A DNA stretch of 64,000 nucleotides from assembly GCA_963724065.1 (NCBI GenBank), contig CAVRTB010000006.1, forward strand, positions 133,105-197,104, in the 5' to 3' direction. The notes under the pieces are model-generated. The model saw nothing but the letters and a program-made list of their open reading frames with translations, searched no databases and was not told the DNA's origin. Below are positions 26,009-41,518 of this stretch, one piece after another. Every line of letters begins with the position of its first letter. Position 1 is the first letter of the stretch. Both the position numbers and the translations under genes were made by a program. The stretch comes from an uncultured Solirubrobacterales bacterium. GTDB lineage: Bacteria; Actinomycetota; Thermoleophilia; Solirubrobacterales; JBBDJG01.

Positions 26009-26092
26009 GTCACTACCTCCTGCTCGATTATGTCCTCTTATCGGTAGGTCGGCTCTCGACTGTTAGTAGCACGTAAGTCTGCAAACGGACGT

Positions 26093-26118
26093 CCGGATGC
26101 GTTCCCCGGATGCGTTCC
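26093..26118. promoter_or_regulatory. perfect 13-bp tandem direct repeat in a divergent intergenic region
   Basis: CCGGATGCGTTCC occurs twice back to back, between divergently transcribed secreted-protein genes. Possible regulator binding site. Confidence 0.35.
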
Positions 26119-26227
26119 TGGACGACCGCCTAATAAACGGCGGTTCAAGATCGGCGGGAGCGGGTATTCCCGTGCTGTCCTGGTAGCAGCGTCGGAAAGC
26201 CGGCTCGTACTCGTGCAAGGGGGGAAG

Positions 26228-27748
26228 ATGACCAGCAGTTCTCTGCGTTGGGTTGTTTCGGTGATCGTCGCGGCCGCGTGCGCCGCGCTCTTCGCGCCGG
26301 CGGCGAGCGCCCGCGACGACGCTGTGACCTCGTTCGACGGTACGCGGATCGTGCTCTCGTTCTTCCCCGCCGAGGGGCTCCAGGCCGCACAGAAGGCACC
26401 GACGATCCTGATCGGCCCGGGCTGGTCGAGCGGCCGCGACACCAACCAGGACAGCGCTTCGAGCGCCGGTACCGGCACGACCGGCGTCGGGCCCTTCCGC
26501 CGCGCCGGCTACAACGTCCTGACCTGGGACCCGCGCGGCTTCGGCCAGTCGGGCGGCACGGTGCAGGTGGACTCGCCCGCCTACGAGGGGCGCGACGTGC
26601 AGGCGCTGATCGACTTCGTCGCACGCCAGCCCGAGGCCCAGCTCGACCGCGCCGGTGACCCCCGGCTCGGCATGTCGGGCGGCAGCTACGGCGGCGGGAT
26701 ACAGCTCGTCACGGCAGCGATCGACTCCCGCGTCGACGTGATCGCCCCGGACATCGCGTGGCACTCGCTCGTCACGAGCCTCTACAAGTCCCAGTCGCCG
26801 AAGTCCGGCTGGGGTTCGGCGCTGTTCGCGCTGGGCGCCGAAGGATCGACGATCCCGGGCGTGCCGGCGGGCGAGACGGGCAACCTCGACCCGCACATCA
26901 CGAGCGCGTACACGTCCGGCCTCGCCTATGGGAGCTTCTCCGACGAGGACGTCGCATGGTTCGCCGCGCGTGGGCCGGGCGCCTTGGTCGAGCGCATCCG
27001 GATTCCGACGCTGCTGATCCAGGGAACGGTCGACACGCTCTTCACGCTCGACGAGGCGACGACCAACTACCGGATCCTGAGGGCCAACAAGGTCCCCTCC
27101 AAGATGATCTGGTTCTGCGGCGGCCACGGCGCATGCCTCACGGCCGGCGGGCCTGCAAACTGGGTCGAGACCCAGACACTGCAGTGGTTCGCGCGCTACC
27201 TGAAGGGGCAGAAGTCCGTCGCGACGGGCCCGCGCTTCGAGTGGATCGCCGACGACGGCCAGGTGCGCAGCGCGGCCGACTACCCGCCGCCGGCGCCGCG
27301 CGTGACGGCGGCCTCCGGGTCCGGGATCCTCGCGGTGAACCCGGATGCGGTCTCGTCCGGCACGCTGATCGCGGCGACGCCGAGCCCGCTCGGCCTGCAC
27401 CTCCCGATCACGACTCCCGCCGTCGGGAGCCAGATCGTGGGAGCGCCGAAGCTGACCCTCTCCTATAGCGGGCTCGGCACGAGCTCCTCGGTGCCCGTCT
27501 ACGCGCAGATCGTCGACAAGGCCCGCAACATCGTCGTCGGCAACGTCGCCACGCCGGTGCGGCTGACGCTCGACGGCCTGCCGCGCACCGCGACATTCAC
27601 GCTCGAGGAGGTCGCCGCGAGCGTCGGCGCAGGGTCGTCGTACGAGCTCCAGGTCGTGCCGGCATCGTCGCTGTACGCGCCGCAGCGCGTGACCGGGCTC
27701 GTCGACGTGACGAGCGCGGCGCTCTCGCTCCCGGTCGCGGGGGGCTGA
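26228..27748 (+). CDS. secreted CocE/NonD-family (S15 X-Pro dipeptidyl-peptidase-like) alpha/beta hydrolase
   Basis: MTSSSLRWVVSVIVAAACAALFAPAASA signal peptide. WDPRGFGQSGG and GMSGGSYGG (GxSxG). C-terminal beta-sandwich region. The track ORF starts at GTG 26213. Confidence 0.8.
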   Translation: MTSSSLRWVVSVIVAAACAALFAPAASARDDAVTSFDGTRIVLSFFPAEGLQAAQKAPTILIGPGWSSGRDTNQDSASSAGTGTTGVGPFRRAGYNVLTWDPRGFGQSGGTVQVDSPAYEGRDVQALIDFVARQPEAQLDRAGDPRLGMSGGSYGGGIQLVTAAIDSRVDVIAPDIAWHSLVTSLYKSQSPKSGWGSALFALGAEGSTIPGVPAGETGNLDPHITSAYTSGLAYGSFSDEDVAWFAARGPGALVERIRIPTLLIQGTVDTLFTLDEATTNYRILRANKVPSKMIWFCGGHGACLTAGGPANWVETQTLQWFARYLKGQKSVATGPRFEWIADDGQVRSAADYPPPAPRVTAASGSGILAVNPDAVSSGTLIAATPSPLGLHLPITTPAVGSQIVGAPKLTLSYSGLGTSSSVPVYAQIVDKARNIVVGNVATPVRLTLDGLPRTATFTLEEVAASVGAGSSYELQVVPASSLYAPQRVTGLVDVTSAALSLPVAGG

Positions 27749-27766
27749 CCGCTGGGCGACGACGCC

Positions 27767-28372
<606 letters not shown>

Positions 28373-28408
28373 CCACACCGCTCAAACCCGGCGCGGAGCC
28401 TAGGACCG

Positions 28409-28456
28409 CGCCGTGCCGTTCACGCTCAGGAACCTCAAGGAGGACCTGGAGGACGT
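28409..28456 (+). repeat. 48-bp direct repeat, copy 2
   Basis: CGCCGTGCCGTTCACGCTCAGGAACCTCAAGGAGGACCTGGAGGACGT. Covers the start of the cupin gene. Confidence 0.85.
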
Positions 28457-28814
28457 CGGGTCCAGGTTTGACGGCGCGCCGGATTTGGAGTTCCGCTTGG
28501 CGACCGAGGCGCTCGAGCTCGAGGAATCCGGCCTGAGCTACCAGCGCGTCCCGCCCGGCTATCGCTTCCCGTACGGCCACACGCACAGGAAGCAGGAGGA
28601 GGTGTACGTGGTCCTGCGCGGGAGCGGGCGGATGAAGCTTGACGACGAGATCGTCGAGCTCAAGGAATGGGACGCGGTGCGCGTCCCGCCCGCTACGTGG
28701 CGAGGCTACGAGGCCGGGCCGGAGGGCCTCGAGCTGCTCGTCATCGGCGCGCCCAGTCTCGGCGAGGCTCGGCGCGAAGACGTCGATGGCGAGCGCGACT
28801 GGTGGGCTGACTAG
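28413..28814 (+). CDS. cupin-domain protein
   Basis: 133 aa. GYRFPYGHTHRKQEEVYVVLRGSG..VRVPP resembles cupin_2 motifs. Confidence 0.75.
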   Translation: MPFTLRNLKEDLEDVGSRFDGAPDLEFRLATEALELEESGLSYQRVPPGYRFPYGHTHRKQEEVYVVLRGSGRMKLDDEIVELKEWDAVRVPPATWRGYEAGPEGLELLVIGAPSLGEARREDVDGERDWWAD

Positions 28815-28935
28815 CGCCAGGTATCCGGCTCTGCCGGCGCAGGGGCAGCCCAGCTCGTACGGGGGGCCGCAGCCGCCGGGGGGTGATCGTGGTCGCACGG
28901 CACCAGGCAGCGGCGGCGGTTGCCCTGCGCCTGGC

Positions 28936-29691
28936 TCAGGAGCTCGCCGAGGTGAAACGCAGAATCTCGGAGGCCACCAGCTCCGGGTCGTCGAACATCG
29001 CGGTGTGGCCGCAGCCGGGCAGCTCGCGCAACTCCGCTTTCGGCAGCTCGGCGAGGAATCGCTCGGCATGATCGCGCGACAGGACCCGATCGCCGGACGG
29101 ACGAAGGATGAGTACGGGACAGCTCACCTGCTCGAGCCCTTCGATCCGAGCGACCGTCCCGTCCGCGCGCGTGTTCGCGGCGAGCTGTGCGGAAACGTCG
29201 CAGTAGGCGAACTCGGCCAGCAGGCGCTCCGCCTCGACAGGCGGGATCCGGGTCGGGTCGACGCAGGCGTCGGCCATCAGCACGCGTCTTCCCCGACGCG
29301 TGCGAACCAGCCGCCGTGCGAGCGGCAAGAGCATCCGGACCGTGCGGTGGTCGCGGCGAAACTTCTTCGCGAAGGCACGCCCTTCGTCGGGCGTGAATAA
29401 CCCGGCGGGGGCCACCCCGACGACGGTTCGCGCCCGCCCGCGCTTGGCGAGCTCGAGCGCCAGCCAGCCGCCGAGTGAGTTGCCGGCGATGTCGGGGCGC
29501 TCGAATCCCGCGGCATCCAGCTCCGCTTCGACGGCGTCCGCCCAGGTCTCGACCGTGGGTGCGGCCCCGGCGTCGAGCGGCGGCGACCCGAGGTGGTCGG
29601 GGAGCGTCGGCGCGAGCACCTCGCGTTCAGCAGCGAGTCGGTCGAGCACGGGCGACCAGCTGTGCCAGCTCTCCCAGATCCCGTGAAGCAA
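28936..29691 (-). CDS. alpha/beta hydrolase, apparently lacking a canonical N-terminus
   Basis: LLLLHGIWESW.. (HG oxyanion motif), GNSLGG nucleophile elbow, C-terminal GCGHTAMFDDP. Homology-like sequence (RVPWDTPRLKLDCYRAGSGAP) continues upstream of the TTG start with no ATG/GTG/TTG before an in-frame TAA. Confidence 0.7.
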   Translation of the reverse strand: MLHGIWESWHSWSPVLDRLAAEREVLAPTLPDHLGSPPLDAGAAPTVETWADAVEAELDAAGFERPDIAGNSLGGWLALELAKRGRARTVVGVAPAGLFTPDEGRAFAKKFRRDHRTVRMLLPLARRLVRTRRGRRVLMADACVDPTRIPPVEAERLLAEFAYCDVSAQLAANTRADGTVARIEGLEQVSCPVLILRPSGDRVLSRDHAERFLAELPKAELRELPGCGHTAMFDDPELVASEILRFTSASS

Positions 29692-29769
29692 GAGGAGCGG
29701 CGCGCCGCTCCCGGCGCGGTAACAGTCAAGTTTCAGGCGCGGAGTATCCCAAGGAACGCGGCGACAGGC

Positions 29770-30228
29770 TTACCGCCAGCGTGGCTTGTGCCCGCCCCGG
29801 TGTGGGAGGGAGCGCGTCGGGGGAGCGTCCTGCTCCGACAGTCCCACGGCTTCGAGGGCCTCTCGCTTGTCTTGTGTCTCCTGGACGCGCACTACGAGTC
29901 CGTCGCGCAGCTTGAAGATGAAGGCCAAGTCCATGCCAGCCGAAGCACCGCTCAGTCCGCCACGCGACTCGCTGCGCGTCCAAGCCACGGCCTGATCGTC
30001 GCTGGCCTCGAAAATCTCTCGCACCTCAACATTGACGCCCATCATCTCGGCCCAGGTCAGGCCGTACCGCTTCACCGCTTCCGGCCCACGATGAACGGTC
30101 GTATCAGGGTCTTCAGGATCGACGTGCCACTCCACGTCGGGGGCCATCATCTCGACCCATGCGTCGATCTCACGACGGTTGTACAGCTTCAAGAACCGCT
30201 CGATCAACTCCGCGTTCTCCTGCGACAT
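29770..30228 (-). CDS. SnoaL-like / NTF2-fold protein
   Basis: MSQENAELIERFLKLYNRREIDAWVEMMAPDVEWH..., typical of the ketosteroid-isomerase-like family. Confidence 0.7.
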   Translation of the reverse strand: MSQENAELIERFLKLYNRREIDAWVEMMAPDVEWHVDPEDPDTTVHRGPEAVKRYGLTWAEMMGVNVEVREIFEASDDQAVAWTRSESRGGLSGASAGMDLAFIFKLRDGLVVRVQETQDKREALEAVGLSEQDAPPTRSLPHRGGHKPRWR

Positions 30229-30278
30229 CGTCTGCTCCTATGTCAAGGCCGCCACCTGAAGTGGCTCCTTGATCTTGG

Positions 30279-30640
30279 TCAAATGTTCATTGCCACGGGA
30301 TCCGTTCTATCCGATGAGGCCGGCGGGTGCAGCAACCGCGAGACGGTTCGCACGAGCTGGCGCTCGAGACACCGCAGCGCCTCCCGCTTGGTCTTGCCCT
30401 CGGCCTCTTGCGGGCCAGGTAGTGCTGCGCCGGGGCGTGCATGCGCTTTCGGCTCACTGCGATCCGGTGCAGCGCGCAGTTGAGCTGGCGATCGCCGCCG
30501 TGGTCGAGCCGGTGACGGTCGTTGCGCCCCGAGGAGACGGGGACCCGCGCGACGCCCGCAAGCCGTGCGAAGTGAGCCTCGGCGGGGAAGCGCTCGCCCA
30601 CGTCGGCGGGCCGCCGGCGGCCTACGGCTGGCGGCTCCCG
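30279..30640 (-). pseudogene. IS110-family transposase, C-terminal relic with internal frameshift
   Basis: GERFPAEAHFARLAGVARVPVSSGRNDRHRLDHGGDRQLNCALHRIAVSR (ORF 30287..30601) continues in another frame as EGKTKREALRCLERQLVRTVSRLL (end of ORF 30279..30854). This is the conserved IS110 Transposase_20 C-terminus. No N-terminal DEDD domain is present. Confidence 0.75.
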
Positions 30641-30702
30641 GGTATGACGTCCATCTGCCGCTCACTGACCGGCGGTTCAAGTGGGCCACACCCATTCGGG
30701 TT

Positions 30703-32994
30703 ATGGTTGCCCACGAGGTGGGGTTCAGCGGGGCATGGGGGAGCGGTCGGGCGGCGCTGGTCGTCGCGCTCGCCGTGCTCGCGTGCATCGCGCCGGCCCA
30801 GGCCTCGGCATCGCTACCGCTCGTGCAGTCCGGCCCGCGGCCGGGACCCGACATCCTCTACGCGCCGAAGCCGCGCGCGCCCCAGCTCGAGAACACGGGA
30901 GTTTGGAAGGCGCCGCCGATCCTCGTATCCGGCGCGAGCGCCTACCGCAAGGGCGAGTTCCTCTACCAGGACTTCCTCTACGACGATCACGGCCCAAGGG
31001 GCCAGCGCGATCCGGGCGATCCCCGCCGCGCGAGCTCCGAGGAGGCCTCGGCCCCGTACGGGTCCTACACCTACCCGACCGACGACGTCTACGCCGGTAA
31101 CGCCGCCGACCTCGTCGAGCTGCGCGTCAAGGCGCTGACCAAGTCCACCGCCTTTCGCGTCACGCTCAACACGCTGCACGATCCCGCGCGCGTCGCGTTC
31201 ACGATCGCGATCGGCGGCGATCCGGCCACGCCGCGACCGCTGCCCCACGGCGCGGGGGCGAGCGCGCCCGCCGACCTGTTCCTGACCGTCCACGGCGACG
31301 ACGCCGAGCTGATCGACGCCGCCACGGGCGCCGCGGCGGGCACGCCCTCCGTCAAGGTCGACCTGCGGCGCCGTCAGTTCACCGTGCGGATCGCTCACGA
31401 CGACTGGGACCCGGGCCTCGCAACGGTGCGCCTCGCCGCGGGCGTCGGCCTGTGGGACTCGGCGAACGACCGCTACCTGGTGCCCGGCGCGGCGGCCACC
31501 GAGTCGCTCCCCGGAGGCGCCGCCGGCCTGGCCTCGCCGACCGCGATCTTCAACGCGGCCTTCCGCTACACGGAGCCGATCCAGGGGCCCGACTTCTCGA
31601 TCTTCTCGGGCGCGGCCTGGTGGCGCGACCGGCTCCAGGGGATCCTGCTGCGGCAGGGCAGCCTCACCCAGTTCAGCGCGCAGGTCGACTTCGCCAAGCT
31701 CGCCGGCGGCGTGAGCGACGACATGCCGGGGCAGGTCGGCGGCGTGCCGCAGGAGGGGTCGATCAACCGCATCCTCGCGAGTCGCTTCGAGACCGCGCAG
31801 GGCACCGACTACTCGCCCGTCTGCCTGGGCACGAGCGGGTCGCTGCCCGGCGAATGCAAGGGCGAGCTGCGCGGGCGGCTCCAGCCCTACAACGTCTACG
31901 TCCCGCGCAAGCCGGTGCCGGCGGCGGGATACGGGCTGACGCTCCTGCTGCATTCCTTCGGCGGCAACTACAACCAGTACGCGAACTCGCGCAACATCAC
32001 CCAGTTCGGCGAGCGCGGGGCGGGCTCGATCGTCGTCACGCCCGAGGGCCGCGGCCCGGACGGGTTCTACCTCGACCATGCGGGCGCGGACGTGTTCGAG
32101 GTCTGGGCCGACGTCGCGCGCAACTACCGGCTCGATCCCGACTGGACGGCGATCGCCGGCTACTCGATGGGCGGTTACGGCGCGTACAAGCTCGCGGTCC
32201 AGTTCCCGGACCTGTTCGCGCGCGTGCAGACGACGGTGGGCGTCCCGGGACTGAGCTTCGGGGACACCAAGCCGCTGCTCGAGTCGCTGCGCAACATCCC
32301 GATCCTGATCTGGGTCGGAGGATCGGACGAGTCGGTGCCGCCCGCCACGACGAGGCCGGTCGCCGACCGCCTCGAGGCGCTCGGCTATCGCTATGAGTAC
32401 GACGAGTTCCTGTCCGCGATCCATCTGCTGCTCGCCTTCAACGACCAGTACCAGCCGGCCGCCGACTTCCTCGGCGAGGCCCGCGTCGATCGCGACCCGG
32501 CGCACGTGTCCTACGCCTACAACCCCGCGCTCGACTACCCGGGCGCCGGGACTGCCGCCGGGCACGCCTACTGGGTCTCCGGCGTGACGGTGCGCGACGC
32601 CGCCGCGCAGGACGGCGTCGGGAAGGTCGACGTTCGCTCGGAGGGCTTCGGCGTGGGGGACCCCGTGCCCAACGCAACGACGACCGGACTGCGCCAGCTC
32701 ACGGGGGGCGTGCTCGCCACGCTCTTCTCCAACTTCCGCGCGAAGACCTGGGGCGACACGCCGGCTGCACCGGTCGCGGACCGCCTCGTCGTCGATGCAC
32801 GCAACGTCTCCGCGATCAGCGTGGACCCGCGGCGCGCGCGCGTCACGTGTGACGCGCAGATCGTGCTGACCGGGGAGCCGGTCGAGGTGACGCTCGCCGG
32901 GTGTGAGCCACCGTGCCGCAAGTCGGTCCCGGCCCACGGCCGCGACGGCCGCCCGCCGGGGCTGTGCAAGCCCGGCCGGGCCGCGAAGCCGTAG
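30703..32994 (+). CDS. secreted protein with C-terminal esterase/PHB-depolymerase-type alpha/beta-hydrolase domain
   Basis: ATG 30703 gives MVAHEVGFSGAWGSGRAALVVALAVLACIAPAQASA. LLLHSFGGNYNQY. GYSMGGYGAYKLAVQFPDLFA (GxSxG). IWVGGSDESVP. The N-terminal ~400 aa are unrecognised. Confidence 0.75.
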   Translation: MVAHEVGFSGAWGSGRAALVVALAVLACIAPAQASASLPLVQSGPRPGPDILYAPKPRAPQLENTGVWKAPPILVSGASAYRKGEFLYQDFLYDDHGPRGQRDPGDPRRASSEEASAPYGSYTYPTDDVYAGNAADLVELRVKALTKSTAFRVTLNTLHDPARVAFTIAIGGDPATPRPLPHGAGASAPADLFLTVHGDDAELIDAATGAAAGTPSVKVDLRRRQFTVRIAHDDWDPGLATVRLAAGVGLWDSANDRYLVPGAAATESLPGGAAGLASPTAIFNAAFRYTEPIQGPDFSIFSGAAWWRDRLQGILLRQGSLTQFSAQVDFAKLAGGVSDDMPGQVGGVPQEGSINRILASRFETAQGTDYSPVCLGTSGSLPGECKGELRGRLQPYNVYVPRKPVPAAGYGLTLLLHSFGGNYNQYANSRNITQFGERGAGSIVVTPEGRGPDGFYLDHAGADVFEVWADVARNYRLDPDWTAIAGYSMGGYGAYKLAVQFPDLFARVQTTVGVPGLSFGDTKPLLESLRNIPILIWVGGSDESVPPATTRPVADRLEALGYRYEYDEFLSAIHLLLAFNDQYQPAADFLGEARVDRDPAHVSYAYNPALDYPGAGTAAGHAYWVSGVTVRDAAAQDGVGKVDVRSEGFGVGDPVPNATTTGLRQLTGGVLATLFSNFRAKTWGDTPAAPVADRLVVDARNVSAISVDPRRARVTCDAQIVLTGEPVEVTLAGCEPPCRKSVPAHGRDGRPPGLCKPGRAAKP

Positions 32995-33053
32995 ACCAAG
33001 CCCGGCGACTGGAATACTGCGCGCGTCCCCTGGATCGAGCGAGAGGAGAGGCG

Positions 33054-33989
33054 ATGGCGGAGTCGAGGGAGCTTGCGTCCGGGCTGAGGTTCCCGGAGGG
33101 CCCGGTTGCGATGCGCGACGGAAGCGTGATCGTGGTCGAGATCGCGGGAAAGGCGATCACCCGCGTTTCCCCGGACGGGTCCAAGGAGGAGATCGCGCGG
33201 CCGGGCGGCGGCCCGAATGGCGCTGCGATCGGGCCTGACGGCAACCTCTACGTCTGCAACAACGGCGCCGCCTTCGACTACCTCGAGCTACCCGGGATGG
33301 AGGGCATCCTGGTGCCGCGCCAGCCGCCCAGCAATCACGAAGGCGGGCGCATCGAGCGCGTGGACCTCGGGTCAGGCGCGGTCGAGGTTCTCTACGACGC
33401 CTGCGATGGCCGCCCGCTGCGCGCGCCGAACGATCTCGTCTTCGACGCTCACGGAGGCTTCTACTTCACCGACCACGGCATCCGCGAGCACCGCACGGCG
33501 GACCGCACGGGCGTGTTCTACGCGAAGCCGGACGGGTCCGGGATCAGCGAGGTGATTCCGCCGCTCGACGCGCCGAACGGGGTCGGGCTCTCGCCGGACG
33601 GCTCGCGCATCTACGTGGCGGAGACGTACAGCGCGTGTGTGTGGTGGTGGAACGTCGCCGGTCCCGGGGAGGTGTCGATCCCGGAGGGCCTGCTCCCGCA
33701 CGGCGGCGAGCTGCTCACGCGCTTGCCCGGGTTCCAGTTCCTCGACTCGCTCGCCGTCGACGGCGAGGGGAACGTCTGCGTCGCGACGCTCGGCTCCGGT
33801 GGGATCACGTCGGTGAGTCCCGAGGACGGATCGGTCGTCGACTTCGTGGAGGGCGGCGATCTGTTCGTCACCAACATCTGCTTTGGCGGCGAGGACCTGC
33901 GAACGGCCTACATCACCGCGTCCGGCGCCGGAAAGCTGCTCGAGGTCAGCTGGCCGCGGCCCGGTCTGGCGCTGGCCCACTCGGCCTGA
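33054..33989 (+). CDS. SMP-30/gluconolactonase/LRE-family beta-propeller
   Basis: GAGAGGAGAGG RBS. LRFPEGPVAMRDGSVIVVE.., GPNGAAIGPDGNLYVCNNG, PNDLVFDAHGGFYFTD, PNGVGLSPDGSRIYVAET. Confidence 0.85.
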   Translation: MAESRELASGLRFPEGPVAMRDGSVIVVEIAGKAITRVSPDGSKEEIARPGGGPNGAAIGPDGNLYVCNNGAAFDYLELPGMEGILVPRQPPSNHEGGRIERVDLGSGAVEVLYDACDGRPLRAPNDLVFDAHGGFYFTDHGIREHRTADRTGVFYAKPDGSGISEVIPPLDAPNGVGLSPDGSRIYVAETYSACVWWWNVAGPGEVSIPEGLLPHGGELLTRLPGFQFLDSLAVDGEGNVCVATLGSGGITSVSPEDGSVVDFVEGGDLFVTNICFGGEDLRTAYITASGAGKLLEVSWPRPGLALAHSA

Positions 33990-34740
33990 CCGCGAGTCGC
34001 GCGGTCAGCTCAGCGAAGGAGCCGGCGAACCGGCTGCGCGCGCGCCAGCGGCCCGACGCCGCGTAGACCTGGAGGCGGATGAACATGGAGTCGACCAGCC
34101 GGTCGTCCGCGCTCACCTCCTTGACGATCCTCCGGTGCGGCTGCTCGCGGTAGGCGAAGGCGAGCGCCGCATCGAGCTCATGCCAGACCGTGAACGTCAT
34201 CGCGCCCCGGTAGAGATGCTCGGGGCCGGCCGTGCCCGCGACCAGCCCGGGCGAAGCGAGCAGCCGCCGCGTCGCGCCGACGATGTTGCTCCAGAAGTAC
34301 CAGAGGTGGCGCGGCGCGATGTTGGCGAACGTCATCATCGCGACCGGGCCTTCCTGCGCGCGACCGGGCGGCAGGTCCGCGAGCGGTCGCCTGCCGCGAT
34401 AGCTGCCGTGGGCCCGAAACGGGACCATCCTGATCTCGCAGTACTCGTCCGTGGCGTCCTGCCAGCGCCGGCCGATCGGCGACTCGGACAGGAAGCGCTC
34501 GAGCGCGCGCTCGTCCTCCCACACGCACATCGCGATCTGGCGACGCGGGTCGACGATCCCGATGTTGAAGCCCTCGGTGCGCGCCGACCCGGCGAACACG
34601 ACCGTGTGGAAGAGCAGGCCCGGCGTGCGCGCGAGCGCGCGGCGCTCGCGGAACAGGCTGCGCACGGCATCGCGCAGCGACCGGAAGTGGAACACGTGGG
34701 TCGAGCCCACACACGCCGGGTGCTGTCCGTTCGCCGCCAT
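33946..34740 (-). CDS. hypothetical protein, spheroidene-monooxygenase (CrtA)-like / dimeric alpha-beta-barrel type
   Basis: 264 aa. ALARTPGLLFHTVVFAGSARTEGF..MCVWEDERALERFL and a second similar half (..MTFTVWHELDAALAFAY) resemble CrtA-like proteins from memory. The function call is weak. The 3' end overlaps the convergent gene by 44 nt. Confidence 0.5.
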   Translation of the reverse strand: MAANGQHPACVGSTHVFHFRSLRDAVRSLFRERRALARTPGLLFHTVVFAGSARTEGFNIGIVDPRRQIAMCVWEDERALERFLSESPIGRRWQDATDEYCEIRMVPFRAHGSYRGRRPLADLPPGRAQEGPVAMMTFANIAPRHLWYFWSNIVGATRRLLASPGLVAGTAGPEHLYRGAMTFTVWHELDAALAFAYREQPHRRIVKEVSADDRLVDSMFIRLQVYAASGRWRARSRFAGSFAELTARLAVRPSGPAPDRAAAS

Positions 34741-34771
34741 CGGGTGCGGACCCTAATGGCTGAAGGATTCG

Positions 34772-36404
34772 CTACTTGGTCCAGCTGGTCGACCAGCGGC
34801 TGCGGCTCCAGCGGCTGCGGCTCCAGCGCGAGCGAGCCGGGTCGACCGATTCGTCGGCCGTCGGGGAGCAGTCGCAGGTGTAGACGCCGCTCCAGCGCGA
34901 GCGGCTCCACCGCGACCGGCTCCAGCGTGAGCGCGTGTAGTCGATCGCGCCGGTCTGCGGGTCGACGAGCGAGCTGGGCTCGATCCCCACGTTCGCGCCG
35001 AGCGCGTTCGAGTTCGAGAGGCCCAGGGCCTGCACGAGCTGGACCTCGCGACCGCCGTTCTGGGTCCTGCGCTGGGTACGGACGAGCGCGTCCTTGACCT
35101 CGTCGGGAGTCAGCCCGGGGTTTCGCTCGAGCATGTTCGCGACCGCGCCCGCGACCATCGGCGCGGACATCGAGGTGCCGCCGGCACGGATGTACTCACC
35201 GGACACGATGCAGGACTCGCACATGTCGGCGAAGTCGCTCCCGGGAGAGAGCAGGGAGACGATCTTCGACCCGGGTGCGGTCACCTCGGGCTTGCGGAAG
35301 CCGTCCTGCGTGACGCCGCGGCTCGACCACTCGGTGAGCGTGTCGTCGCGGACCTTGTCGGTTCCCTGGTCGGTGACCGCGCCGACCGAGATCACGAAGG
35401 GATCGTTGCCGGGCGCGTAGGACACGGCACCTGGGCCGGCGCCCCGGTTGCCGGCTGCGGCGACCACCACGATCCCGCTGAACCAGGCTGCCTCGGCCGC
35501 GGCGTCGAGTGGGTCGGTCCGGTACGACTCGGCCTGTGTCGACTCCAGCGACAGGTTGATCACGCGGATGTTGAAGGCGTCCTTGTGGTCGATCGCGAAC
35601 TGGATGCCGTAGATCACGTCGAGCACCGTGGTCGCGCCCTCGTCGTCGTCGACCTTGACCGAGATCAGGTTTGCGTCCGGCGCGACGCCCACGTACTCGC
35701 CGCGCCGGGCGTCGCCGCTGTCACGGTTGCCGCCGTTGCCGGCGATGATGCCGGCGACATGCGTGCCGTGGCCGTAGGTGTCGCGCGGCGTGTTCGCCTC
35801 GGGGTTGGTGACGGCCGTCGCGATCACACGCGAGCCGTGGTCCGTCGAGGACACGCGGAAGTCGGGGAGCGCAGATGCGATGCCGGTGTCGATCACCGCG
35901 ACGCCGACGCCCTTGCCGGTTGCCGGGCGGCCCCACACCTCATCCGCGCGGATCGACTGGTTGTAGGAGGTCTCGAGCTTGCTGGCGTCGACGGACTGAG
36001 CCTTCGTCTGCGCGTTCAGCGACACGGCGTGCACGCCGTCACGAGAGGCGAGGCGCTCGGCCTGGGTTGCGCTGATCGACACGGCAAGCCCGTTGATCAC
36101 GTGCAGGTCACCGGTCACCCGGCCGCCGGACTCGCGCACCAGGGCGCGTGCCTGCGCCGGCTCGACGCCGGGCCGGAACTGCGACGATCGCCTCGACCGC
36201 GCGGCCGGGGCGCTGGGCGGCGAGCTCTGTGAGCGCGGGGCTTGCACCGCCGGGAGTCGTGGCCGTGCCGCTCGTCGAGCCGGTCGTGGCGCCGAGGCCC
36301 GCGAGTGCGATCGAGAGGGAAACAGATGCTGCAAGCAGGGCCGCGGGCCATGTGGCTCGCCGGCTCCAGCAGATGCCCAGCGTGGAAGCGTGATGGAAGT
36401 TCAC
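34772..36404 (-). pseudogene. subtilisin-like S8 protease P1 (signal peptide, I9 propeptide, D/H/S triad, (RSRWS)n tail), frameshifted near the 5' end
   Basis: Catalytic body in ORF 34772..36334 (VAVIDTGI, HGTHVAGI, GTSMSAP). The signal peptide and propeptide start (..WPAALLAASVSLSIALAGLG..AVEAIV) lie in the frame of ORF 36108..36917. An extra C at about 36182 relative to paralog P2 (CTGCGAC vs CTGGAC). The start is GTG 36404 or ATG 36422. Confidence 0.8.
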
Positions 36405-36622
36405 GGGGGGACCAACCTCCATGTCGATCGGAAAAACCCATGGCCCGTGTCCGACCCGAAAGCGGGGAGTTCCGCTGTCTGCCGGGGGCCAACATCCACT
36501 GTGCGCGCCCGTCCCGTCGCCGGCAACCGAACCTGGCCGAACCGGACGCATGTATGAGTTGGGGGAGCGCGCGGCCGGTGACGTGCGCGCCCCTTGTCGG
36601 CACGCCTCGACCCGACGCTGGC

Positions 36623-36655
36623 GTCGATTTACTACCTCCTGGGTTGTCAATCGAC
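36623..36655. repeat. REP-like palindromic element, copy C
   Basis: GTCGATTTACTACC-TCCTG-GGTTGTCAATCGAC, the same family as 9723..9755 (shared CGTCGATT....ACCTCCTGGGT....AA.CGAC). Confidence 0.6.
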
Positions 36656-36676
36656 ACCGGCGGCGCTCCAGAACGA

Positions 36677-36704
36677 CCTCGGCCCGCCGGTGGGCGGGCC
36701 GAGG
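36677..36704 (-). terminator. stem-loop downstream of protease P2
   Basis: Perfect 12-bp GC stem CCTCGGCCCGCC / GGCGGGCCGAGG with a 4-nt loop, 29 nt after the P2 stop. No clear U-tract. Confidence 0.5.
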
Positions 36705-36732
36705 CCTTGGGGGGGGAGGGGGCTTTCGCGGG

Positions 36733-38358
36733 CTACTTGGTCCAGCTGGTCGACCACCGGCTGCGGCTCCAGCGGGAGCGGGCCGGGTCGATGCTGCCGC
36801 TCGTGGTCTTCGAGCAGTCGCAGCTCCAACGCGAGCGGGCCCAGGTGGCGCCCATCGTGCTCGGAGCGGTGCTCCAGCGGGAGCGGCTCCAGCGCGAGCG
36901 GGTGTAGTCGATCGCACCCGTCGCCGGGTCGACCACGGTGTTCGGCGCGATGCCGGCGTTGGGGTTGCTGCCGGCGGTCGCGTTCACGGCCGGGATTGCG
37001 AACGCCTCCCTGCCGGCGCCGACGTTGCGCGCCGTGTCGATCAGGATGCCCTTCACCTGGTCGGGGGTCAGGCCGGGACGCTCCTCGAGCATGTTCGCGA
37101 CGAGGCCCGCGACCATCGGCGCCGACATCGAGGTGCCGCCCGCGCGGATGTACTGGCCGCTGACGATGCAGCTCGGGCACATCGAGGCGAAGGAGCTCTT
37201 GGGCGAGAGCGCCGAGACGATGTGCGCGCCCGGTGCGACGATCTCCGGCTTGGAGAAGCCGTCCTGCGTGCTGCCCCGGCTCGACCAGTCGGCGAGCAGG
37301 TCGTCGTCCGGCGACTTCGTGGCGCGGTCGTCGACCGCCCCGACCGAGATCACGAACGGGTCGTTGCCGGGCGCGTAACTGACCGCGTCGGAGTCGCTCC
37401 CGCGGTTGCCCGCGGCGGCTACCACGACGATGCCGCTGAACCATGCCGCCTCGACCGCGGCGTCGAGCGGGTCCGTCTTGTAGGACTCGGCGACGCTCGA
37501 CTCGAGCGACAGGTTGACGACGCGGATGTTGTAGTCGGACTTGAAGTCGATCGCGAACTGGAGGCCGTAGATCGCGTCCAGGATCGTCGCCTCACCCTTC
37601 TCGTCCGAGGCCTTGATCGAGATCAGGTTCGCGTCGGGCGCGACGCCGATGTAGTCGCCTCGCAGCGAGTCCGAGGACGAGCGGTTGTTGCCGTTGCCGG
37701 CGATGATGCCCGCCACGTGCGTGCCGTGGCCATAGGTGTCATTCGCGGTCGTCGCGTACGGGTTGGTGACCGCGGACGCGATCACGCGGGAGGCGGTACC
37801 CGACTGCGAGACCTTGAAGTCGGCCAGGTTGCCGGCGATGCCGGTGTCGATCACCGCGACGCCGACGCCCTTGCCGGTTGCCGGGTCGTCCCACACCTTG
37901 TCGGACCTGAGCGACGCGTTGTACGAGGTCACGAGCTGGCTCGCGTCGATCGACTGTGGCTTGGCTGACGCGTTCATGGAAACCGCGTGGACGCCCTCGA
38001 GGCCTGCGAGTCGCTCCGCCTCGGCGGCCGTCATGCTCGCGGCGAGGCCGTTGATCACGTGCAGATCACCGGTCACCCGTCCGCCGGACTGGCGCACGAG
38101 CGCGCGAGCCGCGGACGGCTCGATCCCGTTGTCGAACTGGACGATCGCCTCGACCGATGCGCCGGGGCGCTTCGCGGCGAGTTCGATGAGCGCGGGGCTT
38201 GCCCCACCCGGCGTCGCGGCGGTGCCGCTCTGCGAGACGGCGGGAGAGCCGATGCTCGCAAGCGCGAGGGACAGGGACACTGCGGCGGTGAGCAGGGCGG
38301 CCGAGCACATGGCCCAGAAGCCCCAGCGGATGCGCAGCGGGGGGGCAGAGTAGGTCAC
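36733..38358 (-). CDS. subtilisin-like S8 protease P2 (signal peptide, I9 propeptide, catalytic domain, (RSRWS)n tail)
   Basis: ORF 36733..38463. The likely start is GTG 38358 (GGAGG 11 nt upstream, the same arrangement as in P1), giving VTYSAPPLRIRWGFWAMCSAALLTAAVSLSLALA. VAVIDTGI, HGTHVAGI, GTSMSAP. Confidence 0.85.
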   Translation of the reverse strand: MTYSAPPLRIRWGFWAMCSAALLTAAVSLSLALASIGSPAVSQSGTAATPGGASPALIELAAKRPGASVEAIVQFDNGIEPSAARALVRQSGGRVTGDLHVINGLAASMTAAEAERLAGLEGVHAVSMNASAKPQSIDASQLVTSYNASLRSDKVWDDPATGKGVGVAVIDTGIAGNLADFKVSQSGTASRVIASAVTNPYATTANDTYGHGTHVAGIIAGNGNNRSSSDSLRGDYIGVAPDANLISIKASDEKGEATILDAIYGLQFAIDFKSDYNIRVVNLSLESSVAESYKTDPLDAAVEAAWFSGIVVVAAAGNRGSDSDAVSYAPGNDPFVISVGAVDDRATKSPDDDLLADWSSRGSTQDGFSKPEIVAPGAHIVSALSPKSSFASMCPSCIVSGQYIRAGGTSMSAPMVAGLVANMLEERPGLTPDQVKGILIDTARNVGAGREAFAIPAVNATAGSNPNAGIAPNTVVDPATGAIDYTRSRWSRSRWSTAPSTMGATWARSRWSCDCSKTTSGSIDPARSRWSRSRWSTSWTK

Positions 38359-38593
38359 GACGGGATCAACCTCCGTGTCGATCTCGGGGGGCGGGGGGCG
38401 GAAAGCAGATGGCCCGTCCTGACCTGGCAGCGTCCTTGCTGCGTCGTCGGCGGGGGGCCGCAATCCAACATCGGGGAAGCGCGCGGCCCCGGCAACTCTT
38501 TGTGGCGCTTTTGGACCTTTGTACTAAGGTCGCGGCCCCAATCGACGCGCTTGCGCGTTTAGTCCCGCCGCGAGGCGGGCATCACGGCGTCCC

Positions 38594-41209
38594 TCAGTGA
38601 GGCGACGCGACGTGGAACAGCCTGCGCGCCTTCGGCGCCTCGTCGCGCGCGAGCGGCTCCGCGAGGTAGAAGCCCTGCCCGAGCTCGCAGTCGAGGTCGC
38701 GCAGGGCCTCCAGCTCCTCCGCGGACTCGATTCCCTCCGCGACGACGTGCAGGTCGAGGGCGCGCGCGAGGTCGATGATCATGCGCGCGAAGGAGGTTTC
38801 CTGGCTCCCGCGCGTCATGCCCTCCACGAACGGCTTGGCGATCTTCAAGATGTCGAGCGGGAGCAAGCGCAGGTAGCTGAGCGACGAGTACCCCGTGCCG
38901 AAGTCGTCGAGCGCGAGGCCTATGCCCAGCGCCCGTAGCGCGGTGAGCGCGGTCAGGCTGGAGTCGGCGTCCTGCACGACGCTCTCGGTGATCTCCAGCA
39001 CCAGCAGCTCGGCGTCGAGCCCGGTCCGCTCGAGCGCCATCGCGACGGTGTCGGGGAGGGTCGGATCGCGCAACTCGACCGCGGAGAGGTTGACGTGCAC
39101 GCTGATGCCCCGGCCCGTTCGCGACACACCCTGCCAGAGCTGGGCGCTGCGGCAGGCCTCCTCGAGGACGAACTGGCCGAGCGCGATGATCATTCCGGTC
39201 TCCTCCGCGAGCGGCACGAACTCGGACGGCAGGAGGCGTCCGCGGCCGGGGTGGTTCCAGCGGACGAGGGCCTCGGCCGCGGTCACCTCGCCGCTGTGCA
39301 ACGACACGATCGGCTGGTACTCGACGATCAGCTGGCCACGCTCGACGGCGCGCTGGAGCTCCTCCTTCAGGCCGTGGCGCTTGAGCACCGCGTCCCGCAT
39401 GCCGGGGTCGAACATGGCATGACGACCCTTGCCGGACCCCTTGGCGCGGTACATCGCGAGGTCGGCGTTGCGGATCAGCTCATCCGCGTCGTGGCTGTCG
39501 TGCGTGGTCGCGATCCCGATCGACAGGTGCACGAAGATGATCTCGCCGGCGGCGCTGACGGGGTGCTCGAACGTCTTCATGATGCGCTCTGCGAGCATCG
39601 TGGCGCTCTCGTCGACCGAGCGCTCGCGCGCGACCATCACGGCAAACTCGTCCCCGCCGAGGCGCGCGATCGCGTCGTCCGGGCGCACCGAGTCGCGCAG
39701 TCGCTGCGCTACCGCGGACAGCAGCTCGTCACCCGCGCCGTGCCCGAACGAGTCGTTGAAGGTCTTGAAGTCGTCGAGGTCGACGAACAGCACCGCGACC
39801 TCCTGGCCGCCCTTGTCGAGCGCTCCCTTCACCTGCTTGATGAACAGGCTCCGGTTCCCGAGCTCCGTGAGCGGGTCGTGGAAGGCCTGGTGATGCAGTT
39901 GCTCCTGGAGCTCGCGGAGCTGGTGCACGGCCTGCTCCAGCCGGTCGTATTGGAGCGCGACGCTCGCATTGTTGGCGAGCGTCTCGAATAGCTTCAGGTC
40001 CTCGTTGGTGAACGACCGGATCACGCCGTAGCGGTTGGCCAGCATGATCGTCCCGATCACGCGGTCCTCGCCCGGCAGCATCGCGACCATCGCGTCGGTC
40101 ACCAGGCGGCCGTCGAGGTAGCGCCGCAGCCGCTCGGAGCCGAACGGCCGCGCGATGTGCAGCGCCGGGGCGCCGGCGCTCACGAGCGCGCGCAGCTCGG
40201 CGGCGACGCCCTCGTCCATCGGCTCCATCACCTCCTTGTACTCGCCGGGACCGAGCGTCGTGCGCAACGGCGGGTTGCCGTCGGAGCCGAACAGGACGAT
40301 CTCGGCCATCTCGGCCCGGAACGACTCGAGCGAGCGCTCCAGCAGGCCCTCGAGGGCGAGCACCATCTCGGGCGAGCGCGACAGCGTCCGCGTCGCCTCG
40401 TAGAGGAACTCGAGGCGCTCGTGGCGCTGGCGCTCCATGAGATATGCGCGGTAGGCGAGGAACACTACGAGTGCCGGGACCACGAGCAGCGGCGTGGCCC
40501 GCGCGTCGCTCGAGACGACGATCGCCCCGGACAGGGCGAGGCACGTGTTGGTGGCCGTCACGACGAAGTCCATTGTCAGCATCTGGGCGATCGTCCCGAG
40601 CTTCAGGCCCCCCTCGGAGAGGGTGATCGCGAGTCCGATCAGCAGGACCGTGATCACGGCGCTCGCCTGGGTGGCGAGCAGGACGGCCGCCCAGGTGGCC
40701 GGCTCGAGCCCGGCCGCCGCCGGCGCGACGATGTGCACGACCAACGTCGCGAGCGACGCGGCGAACGCGAACTGCGAGAGGTTGAATGCGAGCTTCACGG
40801 GCGCGAGGCGCCGCTCGATCACGAGCGTCGCGGCGCTGCCGATCAGCGCGCCCGCCACGACGTCGCCCCCGGTGGCGAACAGCAGGCCGAACACGAGCGG
40901 GACGTCCCCGAGCGTGAACGAGTGCGCGCTGCGCCGGAACTGCAGGTGGACGACGCAGCTCTCCGCGACGAGGAAGGCGAGCGCGAGGCCCCACCACGGG
41001 AGATGGGGGTCGAGTAGCGCCGGCAGATCGCGCACGATCGTGACGTACAGCGTCGCGGCGGCCGCGGCGACGGCGAGGTTGAGCGCCCACACCGGGCTCA
41101 CGCGCGCGAGGCCGCGGCCTCGCGGCGGCGCGACCGGGTCTGCGGGGGAGTCGGCGGGCGCGTCGGGCGGCGGCCCGGGACCGCCGCGAAATGAGAGCGC
41201 TGGCGACAT
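38594..41209 (-). CDS. membrane-bound GAF-GGDEF-EAL cyclic-di-GMP turnover protein
   Basis: An N-terminal domain with ~8 TM helices. GAF-like region. GGDEF (RLGGDEFAVMV). EAL (EALVRWNHPGRG..DDFGTGYSSL). Confidence 0.9.
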   Translation of the reverse strand: MSPALSFRGGPGPPPDAPADSPADPVAPPRGRGLARVSPVWALNLAVAAAAATLYVTIVRDLPALLDPHLPWWGLALAFLVAESCVVHLQFRRSAHSFTLGDVPLVFGLLFATGGDVVAGALIGSAATLVIERRLAPVKLAFNLSQFAFAASLATLVVHIVAPAAAGLEPATWAAVLLATQASAVITVLLIGLAITLSEGGLKLGTIAQMLTMDFVVTATNTCLALSGAIVVSSDARATPLLVVPALVVFLAYRAYLMERQRHERLEFLYEATRTLSRSPEMVLALEGLLERSLESFRAEMAEIVLFGSDGNPPLRTTLGPGEYKEVMEPMDEGVAAELRALVSAGAPALHIARPFGSERLRRYLDGRLVTDAMVAMLPGEDRVIGTIMLANRYGVIRSFTNEDLKLFETLANNASVALQYDRLEQAVHQLRELQEQLHHQAFHDPLTELGNRSLFIKQVKGALDKGGQEVAVLFVDLDDFKTFNDSFGHGAGDELLSAVAQRLRDSVRPDDAIARLGGDEFAVMVARERSVDESATMLAERIMKTFEHPVSAAGEIIFVHLSIGIATTHDSHDADELIRNADLAMYRAKGSGKGRHAMFDPGMRDAVLKRHGLKEELQRAVERGQLIVEYQPIVSLHSGEVTAAEALVRWNHPGRGRLLPSEFVPLAEETGMIIALGQFVLEEACRSAQLWQGVSRTGRGISVHVNLSAVELRDPTLPDTVAMALERTGLDAELLVLEITESVVQDADSSLTALTALRALGIGLALDDFGTGYSSLSYLRLLPLDILKIAKPFVEGMTRGSQETSFARMIIDLARALDLHVVAEGIESAEELEALRDLDCELGQGFYLAEPLARDEAPKARRLFHVASPH

Positions 41210-41317
41210 GAGTTTGGAGGTGGATCGGCCGCGGGGCGCCGACCCTTGACCGATCGCGCCCCATGCACGTCACATAGCATTGGCGCGGCGACGCAAACTC
41301 ACGGACAAGGAGTCGAG

Positions 41318-41518
41318 ATGGCGAGCGTGATCAAGTTCCTCGGCGACAGCGATCTGATGCTGCGCGTGCGGGAGGACGTCGGCGCCGTGCGCGATGCCCA
41401 TGCCTCGAGCGGCGGGGCGGCGCCCTTTCAGCTCACCTTCGAGGCGAACGGCGCCCCCGTCTATGTGAACCCCGCCGCGGTCGCCTACTGGTTCTCGGTC
41501 GGCTCGCACGAGGAGTGA
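41318..41518 (+). CDS. small hypothetical protein (66 aa)
   Basis: AAGGAG RBS 6 nt upstream of the ATG at 41318. The stop overlaps the start of the next gene (GTGA). Confidence 0.5.
   Translation: MASVIKFLGDSDLMLRVREDVGAVRDAHASSGGAAPFQLTFEANGAPVYVNPAAVAYWFSVGSHEE

Follow-up and report, generated by a model that had tools for sequence, protein, structure and literature searches.

Choline-binding (CW_binding_1), GW and WxL repeats are aromatic-rich C-terminal modules of variable copy number, found on secreted enzymes that have no transmembrane (TM) helix or sortase motif and presumed to bind anionic wall or membrane polymers by avidity. These features are shared by the tails of two tandem S8 subtilases, P1 and P2, which lie on the minus strand of a 64-kb stretch (the window) of contig CAVRTB010000006.1 from an uncultured Solirubrobacterales bacterium and end in arrays of the Arg/Trp pentapeptide RSRWS. 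Unlike these repeats, with which it has no sequence relationship (none of CW_binding_1, GW, WxL, LysM and SLH appears in Pfam at E ≤ 10), the tail has a unit of 5 instead of ~20-80 residues, is more basic and Ser-rich, and contains a CxC loop and a fixed C-terminal pentapeptide; its binding is only presumed. Here we report that the tail is a selectively maintained, length-constrained, lineage-restricted extracytoplasmic C-terminal module that is described by no current library. It is an unannotated domain of unknown function, a C-terminal accessory/anchoring repeat on secreted hydrolases.

Several other systems resemble the tail in part. The LPXTG/sortase, PEP-CTERM and GlyGly-CTERM signals and the mycosin anchor also occupy the extreme C-terminus of secreted proteins and are lineage-restricted, but the tail has no hydrophobic helix, signature motif or cognate sorting enzyme nearby. 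The first-pass annotation, made from the letters alone, had set the tail apart from sorting signals for its lack of a hydrophobic helix, and indeed neither tail matched an NCBIfam release 20 model at E ≤ 10, sorting-signal models included. Thrombospondin type-1 repeats (TSR) and the WSXWS motif of cytokine receptors share with the tail a regular Trp and Arg content, 'WS' dipeptides, extracellular location and disulfides, and a layered cation-pi stack is geometrically conceivable in the tail. However, its Trp residues are spaced by 5 (W-x4-W) and not by 3 and share a strand with Arg, it has two Cys and not six, it is bacterial, and it has neither a profile match (no Pfam TSP_1 hit) nor a confident predicted fold. 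Pentapeptide repeats (PF00805), uninterrupted long runs of A(D/N)LXX units which form a right-handed quadrilateral beta-helix, have the same strict period of five and a small residue two positions before the aromatic one (S-x-W in the tail, A-x-L/F in PF00805), whereas the tail comprises only 5+2 loop-interrupted units, or under two helical coils, with Trp in place of Leu/Phe, and neither window tail matches PF00805 at E ≤ 10. Both analogies, drawn in the first-pass annotation, thus found no confirmation.

Non-catalytic extensions after an S8 core are known from the beta-jelly-roll domain of Tk-SP (PDB 3afg), PPC domains and P-domains, which, unlike the tail, are globular, ~100 residues long and non-repetitive. 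At the level of gene pairing, the surface proteolysis controlled by cyclic di-GMP (c-di-GMP) in Pseudomonas (LapD-LapG) and C. difficile (the c-di-GMP-regulated PPEP-1) is comparable, in that a secreted protease gene here persistently accompanies one for a membrane c-di-GMP protein. The protease here is of the S8 family, in contrast to the Cys protease LapG or a metalloprotease, its partner has intact GGDEF and EAL motifs and no periplasmic output domain, and the locus has no riboswitch.

Pfam searches with the isolated tails and the full proteins returned nothing beyond S8 and I9. The marginal scores obtained were insignificant, namely VID at 11.6 bits for the P2 tail and Pentapeptide at 12.3 bits (cut-off 20.2) for an expanded relative. 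A 26-sequence tail profile had no match among PDB sequences at E ≤ 10, and full-text literature searches with motif strings and related topics gave nothing relevant to the tail. The tail therefore stays, as initially noted, outside the domains named in Pfam, NCBIfam, PDB sequences and the literature searched.

Two tandem subtilases end in a bipartite Arg/Trp repeat

Translation of the open reading frames (ORFs) reproduced exactly the two tails quoted in the first-pass annotation, with their bipartite period of five and their 15-nt DNA repeats (Table 1). Tandem Repeats Finder placed period-15 arrays at 34793-34828 (100% matches, the consensus being the reverse complement of CGCTGGAGCCGCAGC), 34889-34933 and 36863-36902. 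A degenerate two-unit pattern matched six times in the window, always within the two tails, against 0.00 matches expected from shuffles. P1 had been said to differ from P2 by exactly one extra 15-nt unit in the distal block; this is correct, but the proximal block differs as well, with three units and GVYT in P1 and two units, an 11-residue spacer and one unit in P2.

The last 55 residues consist of 37.5% Ser, 14% Arg and 13% Trp and contain no hydrophobic run. Median net charges over 107 homologues are −16 for the catalytic part (isoelectric point, pI, 4.5) and +8 for the repeat part (pI 11.9). The two Cys of the tail form a CxC or CxxC pair or, in expanded forms, stand far apart, and would fit an extracytoplasmic disulfide. 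The module looks internally duplicated, with '..VDP..TGxIDYT + repeats' and '..SGSIDPT + repeats' as its halves, and P0011 is a natural deletion variant in which the two VDP..T sites are joined.

In a full-length AlphaFold2 model based on a 104-sequence alignment, the S8 core was confident and the lead of the module reached a predicted local distance difference test score (pLDDT) of 84-91, with the repeats at 23-46. The tail alone, modelled from 26 sequences, had a mean pLDDT of 43.5. Owing to the low pLDDT of the repeats in both runs, these models were too poor for a fold search.

The module is conserved and maintained by selection

A full-length P1 search yielded 4650 proteins at E ≤ 1e-20, and the architecture was inspected in the best 120 (53-100% identity). 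Essentially all of these share the C-terminal architecture, so the tail is not missing from orthologues. It begins with the lead N-x-G-[LIV]-x-P-[NS]...T-G-x-I-D-Y-T. [RK]-S-x-W-S units then make up the proximal block, where they commonly number five or are arranged as 2 + spacer + 1-2. Next come C-x-C and S-x-T-x-S-G-S-I-D-P-(T/A), 2-4 distal units, T-S-W-T-K and the stop codon. CxC and (I/V)DP(T/A) are nearly invariant. The module spans ~75 residues with the lead and ~55 for the repeats and loop; measured from the lead, it is 74 residues long in 52 of 113 homologues and 75 in another 17. Wherever a locus extends to the stop codon, exactly 5 residues separate the end of the distal block from it.

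In the 75-column alignment A2, Trp is invariant at columns 24, 29, 40, 45, 64, 69 and 73 (68-69 of 69 sequences in the larger set). The only variable Trp is that of the third unit (column 34), where the unit can be replaced by TAPSTM, SAADML, GTGLN and similar strings. From the alignment, the module reads as two units, a variable, loop-like third unit, two further units, the Cys loop and two to three units. A turn at unit 3 would make W24/W45 and W29/W40 cross-strand pairs, which is geometry and not evidence.

Repeats of this kind might simply be a functionless slippage expansion of low complexity or an assembly artefact of a GC-rich repeat. The perfect 15-nt repeats of the P1 distal block, the variation of copy number among lineages and the frequent frameshifting of metagenomic gene calls into ELEPRELEP frames are compatible with this explanation. 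However, the 30 repeat codons of P1 and its L121 orthologue show 9 synonymous and 0 non-synonymous differences, and those of P2 and its orthologue 2 and 0, giving 11 synonymous changes in all. Codon usage differs from unit to unit of the same gene, these synonymous choices being kept at each position, and the last unit always has an AGC...TCG/TCC serine pattern across genomes. Orthologues and independent assemblies also agree in repeat number, and the length of the module and its Trp register are kept. Such an origin is therefore given next to no credence: the tail is neither a strain-specific expansion nor a misassembly, the repeat numbers having been reproduced in independent assemblies.

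The same data speak against the suggestion that copy number changes easily by slippage. The P1-type architecture (3+3) was found in seven sequences and the P2-type (2+1+2) in five of six, the other, P0015, being 2+1+3. Copy number varies only between deeper lineages, from 2 to 11 in the proximal and from 2 to 4 in the distal block, with 14 units in P0141, P0148 and similar expanded forms. The stability of copy number within orthologous lineages lends no support to frequent slippage; slippage clearly happened over evolutionary time, but the locus is not hypervariable.

Distribution and other carriers of the module

A tail-only protein search with a word index, which probably handles the repeat poorly, gave 8 candidates, with 3 fragment matches. 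Against 1.84 billion representative proteins, the tail profile matched 139 at E ≤ 1e-3 and 88 at E ≤ 1e-10. Most of these are short fragments or S8 proteases, and overlap with the C-terminus of S8 is frequent. Units were spelled RSSWS, RSRWS, RSTWS, KSRWS, RASWS, RSSWG, RASFR, RISWS, ASSWS and RARWG. At least nine loci were confirmed in a species-level genome collection, all in metagenome-assembled genomes (MAGs) of Solirubrobacterales or other Actinomycetota, a taxonomic range that is a minimum. A degenerate CGN pattern at the DNA level proved unusable for distribution, as it matched viral contigs whose 15-nt repeats are generic and read in other frames (GGTGGTGG-type).

The gene calls P0136, P0147, P0202, P0227 and P0252 traverse the repeat in the wrong frame (ELEPRELEP..., VDQLDQV), so indel errors seem to be common in this GC-rich repeat. 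Many apparently internal occurrences are in fact tails that a frameshift carries into the ELEPRELEP frame, and internal counts are inflated accordingly.

The module was also found outside simple S8 proteases. In L135 (8535-10924) and L136 (9283-11212), a DUF3494/Ice_binding beta-solenoid domain lies between the S8 core and the repeat module, which remains, with its lead, at the extreme C-terminus despite the insertion of a 200-residue domain after the core. These genes are frameshift-split in the assemblies, and gene callers consequently report a separate, tail-bearing 'ice-binding' protein; inspection of the two loci identified P0269 and P0330 as such split S8-DUF3494-module fusions. Most 'DUF3494+tail' proteins were rejected as independent carriers on these grounds, and the only clean separate carrier is P0259. 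This 371-residue protein has its own signal peptide, the Ice_binding (DUF3494) domain and the lead with six RSSWT units, after which come a CxxC loop and degenerate distal units. About 10 of its best 120 homologues bear the module with RATWS, RAQWT, KSTWG or KGTWS units, and at least two of these, P0269 and P0330, are the split fusions. Hence, the module travels as a unit, and its carriers comprise S8 proteases, S8-DUF3494 fusions and at least one non-protease.

Other close DUF3494 homologues end in LPXTG, a TM helix and a basic tail, or in a TM helix and a basic tail, indicating that C-terminal surface anchors are common in the DUF3494 family. In addition, most of P0270-P0381, a set of DUF3494 homologues in MAGs of Solirubrobacteraceae, terminate in an Ig-like domain (~100 residues) and then PPRxPxGFTG or GLTG. 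This ending resembles LPXTG but occupies the very C-terminus and is not followed by a TM helix.

The catalytic part and its propeptide

P1 and P2 score 182.5 and 175.5 bits against PF00082 (cut-off 21.8), and the triad motifs DTG, HGTH and GTSMSAP are intact in both by direct reading. D171, H211, S410 and N318 are invariant in an alignment of 104 homologues. The first-pass annotation had assigned both proteins an intact triad, which is correct, and an I9 propeptide, which Pfam detects only below threshold (PF05922, 17.3 and 15.2 bits; cut-off 21.2). Indirect support for an I9-like propeptide comes from the beta-alpha-beta-beta-alpha-beta unit predicted by AlphaFold2 at residues 68-128 and from the alignment to Pro-Tk-SP (3afg), which begins at residue 86. 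A signal peptide and propeptide are present in the tail-bearing subtilases. For P2, the GTG at 38358 is the probable start, yielding the 541-residue P0012. The tandem duplication of the protease was seen only in the window and in L121.

The nearest named relatives are the membrane-anchored mycosins, but both proteins score far below the equivalog cut-off of the type VII secretion mycosin model (TIGR03921; 143.8 and 143.4 bits, cut-off 278.75), and their tails contain no hydrophobic stretch, TM helix or sortase motif. The antiphage protein IteS and other named S8 subfamilies in NCBIfam scored far under their cut-offs.

Two side observations concern the conserved sequence outside the tail. The S8 core of P0012 contains a CxxC (MCPSC, residues 394-397) located 13 residues N-terminal of the catalytic Ser and invariant in 104 of 104 aligned homologues; since it is kept even where the tail has no CxC, the two Cys pairs appear to be independent. 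Furthermore, R-x-R-W-G is nearly invariant in alignment A1 at the N-terminus of the family, just before the signal/anchor helix (LRIRWG at P2 residues ~44-48), and P0259 has WRWSG at the same place. Its likeness to the tail unit R-S-R-W-S may be due to chance or to a membrane-interface preference.

Among solved structures, Tk-SP is closest to the catalytic part (3afg, E 6.5e-46), and its alignment stops at residue 481, before the repeats. Tk-SP has a separate C-terminal domain, and other subtilases, such as aqualysin, carry removable C-terminal extensions. The tail might likewise be a C-terminal pro- or auto-inhibitory segment that folds back on the acidic core by electrostatic attraction or aids folding or export and is cleaved at activation. 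The complementary charges of core (−16) and tail (+8), the regularly spaced Arg residues and the conserved Asp-Pro bond of the IDP motif are in line with this function. Nevertheless, we consider it unlikely, as AlphaFold leaves the tail undocked from the core, the seven exact Trp positions and last five residues are conserved beyond the need of a disposable spacer, and the module also occurs behind a DUF3494 domain and on a non-protease.

As assembled, P1 is interrupted at its N-terminus. Alignment with the intact L121 orthologue revealed one extra base (G on the coding strand) near window position 36182 (GTCGCAG in the window, GTC-CAG in L121). This 1-nt insertion separates the reading frame of the signal peptide from that of the propeptide, catalytic domain and tail, and the public (NCBI) gene call is only a shortened product of 455 residues, P0004. 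Translation of the upstream frame gives MEVGPPVNFHH...AALLAASVSLSIALAGLG...AVEAIV, a match to the N-terminus of P2, and P1 orthologues of 546-555 residues are intact. The insertion is either a sequencing error or a recent pseudogenisation.

Genomic neighbourhood

Pfam confirmed that, as first annotated, a c-di-GMP enzyme is encoded directly upstream of P2. This membrane GAF-GGDEF-EAL protein has intact GGDEF and EAL motifs and an N-terminal domain of ~220 residues with ~7-8 TM helices and short loops only, which has no Pfam match. In 15 of 18 evaluable loci (the window, L121, L122, L124-L126, L128-L130, L132, L135, L136 and L138-L140), the subtilase with the tail lies next to a gene for such a protein (54-85% identity), which is placed either upstream on the same strand, divergently (L122) or downstream (L135 and L136). 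The loci with no adjoining GGDEF-EAL gene are L123, L133 (a subfamily beside relA/recJ/secDF) and L137. Any other neighbouring gene is common to at most 5 of 11 clustered loci. The persistent adjacency suggests that the subtilase and the GGDEF-EAL protein are a functional pair.

This pairing raises an alternative in which the tail contacts, or is sensed by, the GAF-GGDEF-EAL protein and thereby couples extracellular proteolysis to c-di-GMP turnover in a LapD/LapG-like manner. Adjacency at such moderate identity and in three arrangements, the lack of any comparably frequent neighbour and the intact GGDEF and EAL motifs would agree with such docking. On the other hand, adjacency speaks for the coupling of the genes and not for the tail specifically, three loci have a tail-bearing S8 gene with no such neighbour, and the short-looped membrane domain offers no LapD-like extracytoplasmic domain. 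Rfam scans, including a permissive scan of 34000-41500, found no riboswitch (including the c-di-GMP type) or other Rfam family in the window. Docking is accordingly rated as improbable. A LapD/LapG-type system in the strict sense, which combines a LapG-family Cys protease with a receptor that has a periplasmic domain, HAMP and a degenerate GGDEF-EAL, was rejected, given the S8 protease and a partner with 7-8 TM helices, short loops, GAF and intact GGDEF and EAL motifs. A promoter and terminator scan found nothing.

The tail could also be a tag recognised by an enzyme dedicated to sorting, secretion or modification, that is, a new C-terminal signal or a site of Trp/Ser modification or cross-linking. 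Its invariant position at the extreme C-terminus, the conserved TSWTK end, its limitation to one lineage and the LPXTG or TM anchors on close DUF3494 homologues lacking the module can be read in this way. However, no sortase, rhombosortase or radical-SAM gene or other candidate processing enzyme recurs near the tail-bearing genes of the clustered loci, where GGDEF-EAL is the sole conserved neighbour; together with the absence of a hydrophobic segment and of any match to NCBIfam sorting-signal models, this makes a tag very unlikely.

On the other side of the proteases, the 264-residue ORF directly downstream of P1 was rejected as a conserved partner, since the gene that follows the protease in L130 is not related to this ORF. 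Further predicted hydrolases lie beside the proteases at 26048-33989, including an S15-like protein, an alpha/beta hydrolase, an SGL lactonase and an 809-residue S9/esterase-like protein with a weak Glucodextran_C match. This cluster is partly syntenic in L121, L125, L132 and L138.

Table 1 Features of the subtilase locus, with positions in the 64-kb window
Feature	Position	Strand	Basis or remark
264-residue ORF directly downstream of P1	33946-34740	−	No Pfam match; conserved in L121 and L125
P1 subtilase ORF in the assembly, 520 residues: propeptide, S8 domain, tail, stop	34772-36334	−	ORF and Pfam
P1 distal block, 3 x RSRWS then TSWTK	34775-34834	−	Stop codon 34772-34774
P1 Cys loop, GVYTCDCSPTADESVDPA	34835-34888	−	
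P1 proximal block, 3 x RSRWS	34889-34933	−	
P1 module lead, NVGIEPSSLVDPQTGAIDYT	34934-34993	−	Lead conserved across the family
P1 Peptidase_S8, residues 140-426	35057-35917	−	Pfam, E 1.5e-53
P1 signal peptide with the first propeptide residues, frame-shifted against the remainder of P1	36183-36422	−	L121 comparison; ATG at ~36422, frame runs to ~36183
P2 subtilase, 576-residue ORF: signal peptide, I9-like propeptide, S8 domain, tail	36733-38463	−	
P2 distal block, 2 x RSRWS then TSWTK	36736-36780	−	Stop codon 36733-36735
P2 Cys loop, CDCSKTTSGSIDPA	36781-36822	−	
P2 proximal block: 2 x RSRWS, degenerate units 3-4 (TAPSTM-GATWA), 1 x RSRWS	36823-36900	−	
P2 module lead, NAGIAPNTVVDPATGAIDYT	36901-36960	−	
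P2 Peptidase_S8, residues 197-483	37015-37875	−	Pfam, E 1.9e-51
Membrane GAF-GGDEF-EAL protein, 871 residues	38594-41209	−	Pfam, EAL 9.8e-72, GGDEF 1.2e-43

A possible role in envelope retention

Judging from sequence features, the tail might be a non-catalytic retention or binding module that keeps an acidic enzyme at the cell surface, a reading to which we assign a probability of roughly 40%. An N-terminal signal sequence would export the protein, and autoprocessing of the I9-like propeptide would then cut the catalytic domain off its N-terminal tether. The mature enzyme, very acidic at about −16, would diffuse from an anionic envelope unless the basic (about +8), Trp-studded tail kept it at the cell surface. 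Arg/Trp-rich peptides generally bind anionic membranes and polymers, and on this basis the tail is proposed to bind polyanionic envelope material (anionic lipids or wall polymers), with Arg providing electrostatic and Trp interfacial or cation-pi contacts, possibly as a small disulfide-stapled beta-meander. We infer the binding target, the beta-meander fold and the retention logic alike. The protease would probably form a circuit with the membrane c-di-GMP enzyme encoded beside it, for instance in surface or biofilm remodelling. Retention is favoured because the acidic enzyme would lose its only N-terminal tether after autoprocessing, which would leave the basic, Trp-rich tail as the sole part that could hold it on an anionic envelope, and because relatives without the module use TM or LPXTG anchors.

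Several points weigh against retention. The repeats have no confident predicted fold (pLDDT 23-46 in both AlphaFold2 runs). Some divergent relatives replace Arg (ASSWS, LSSWS and RISWS units) or substitute Phe for Trp (RASFR), and with Arg replaced the charge is not universally kept. Most ORFs combining DUF3494 and the tail are split S8 fusions, leaving one clean stand-alone carrier, and the conserved GGDEF-EAL neighbour could instead be a specific protein partner of the tail.

A bolder and unlikely extension of the retention model is that [RK]SxWS constitutes a new sortase-independent surface-retention domain of monoderm Actinomycetota, a disulfide-stapled Trp/Arg 'zipper' that attaches to the envelope and couples the subtilase physically or functionally to the GGDEF-EAL enzyme. 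If so, the locus would represent a Gram-positive counterpart of c-di-GMP-gated surface proteolysis. If either retention or docking is true, a new non-covalent anchor would be added to the short list of Gram-positive bacteria, and a compact (~55 residues) cationic Trp-repeat tag would become a candidate for trials in protein display. Solirubrobacterales is a soil-abundant but barely cultured order, and the pairing with a membrane c-di-GMP enzyme offers an entry point to c-di-GMP-linked extracellular proteolysis in Actinomycetota. At minimum, the analysis defines a domain family that would otherwise likely be taken for low-complexity sequence.

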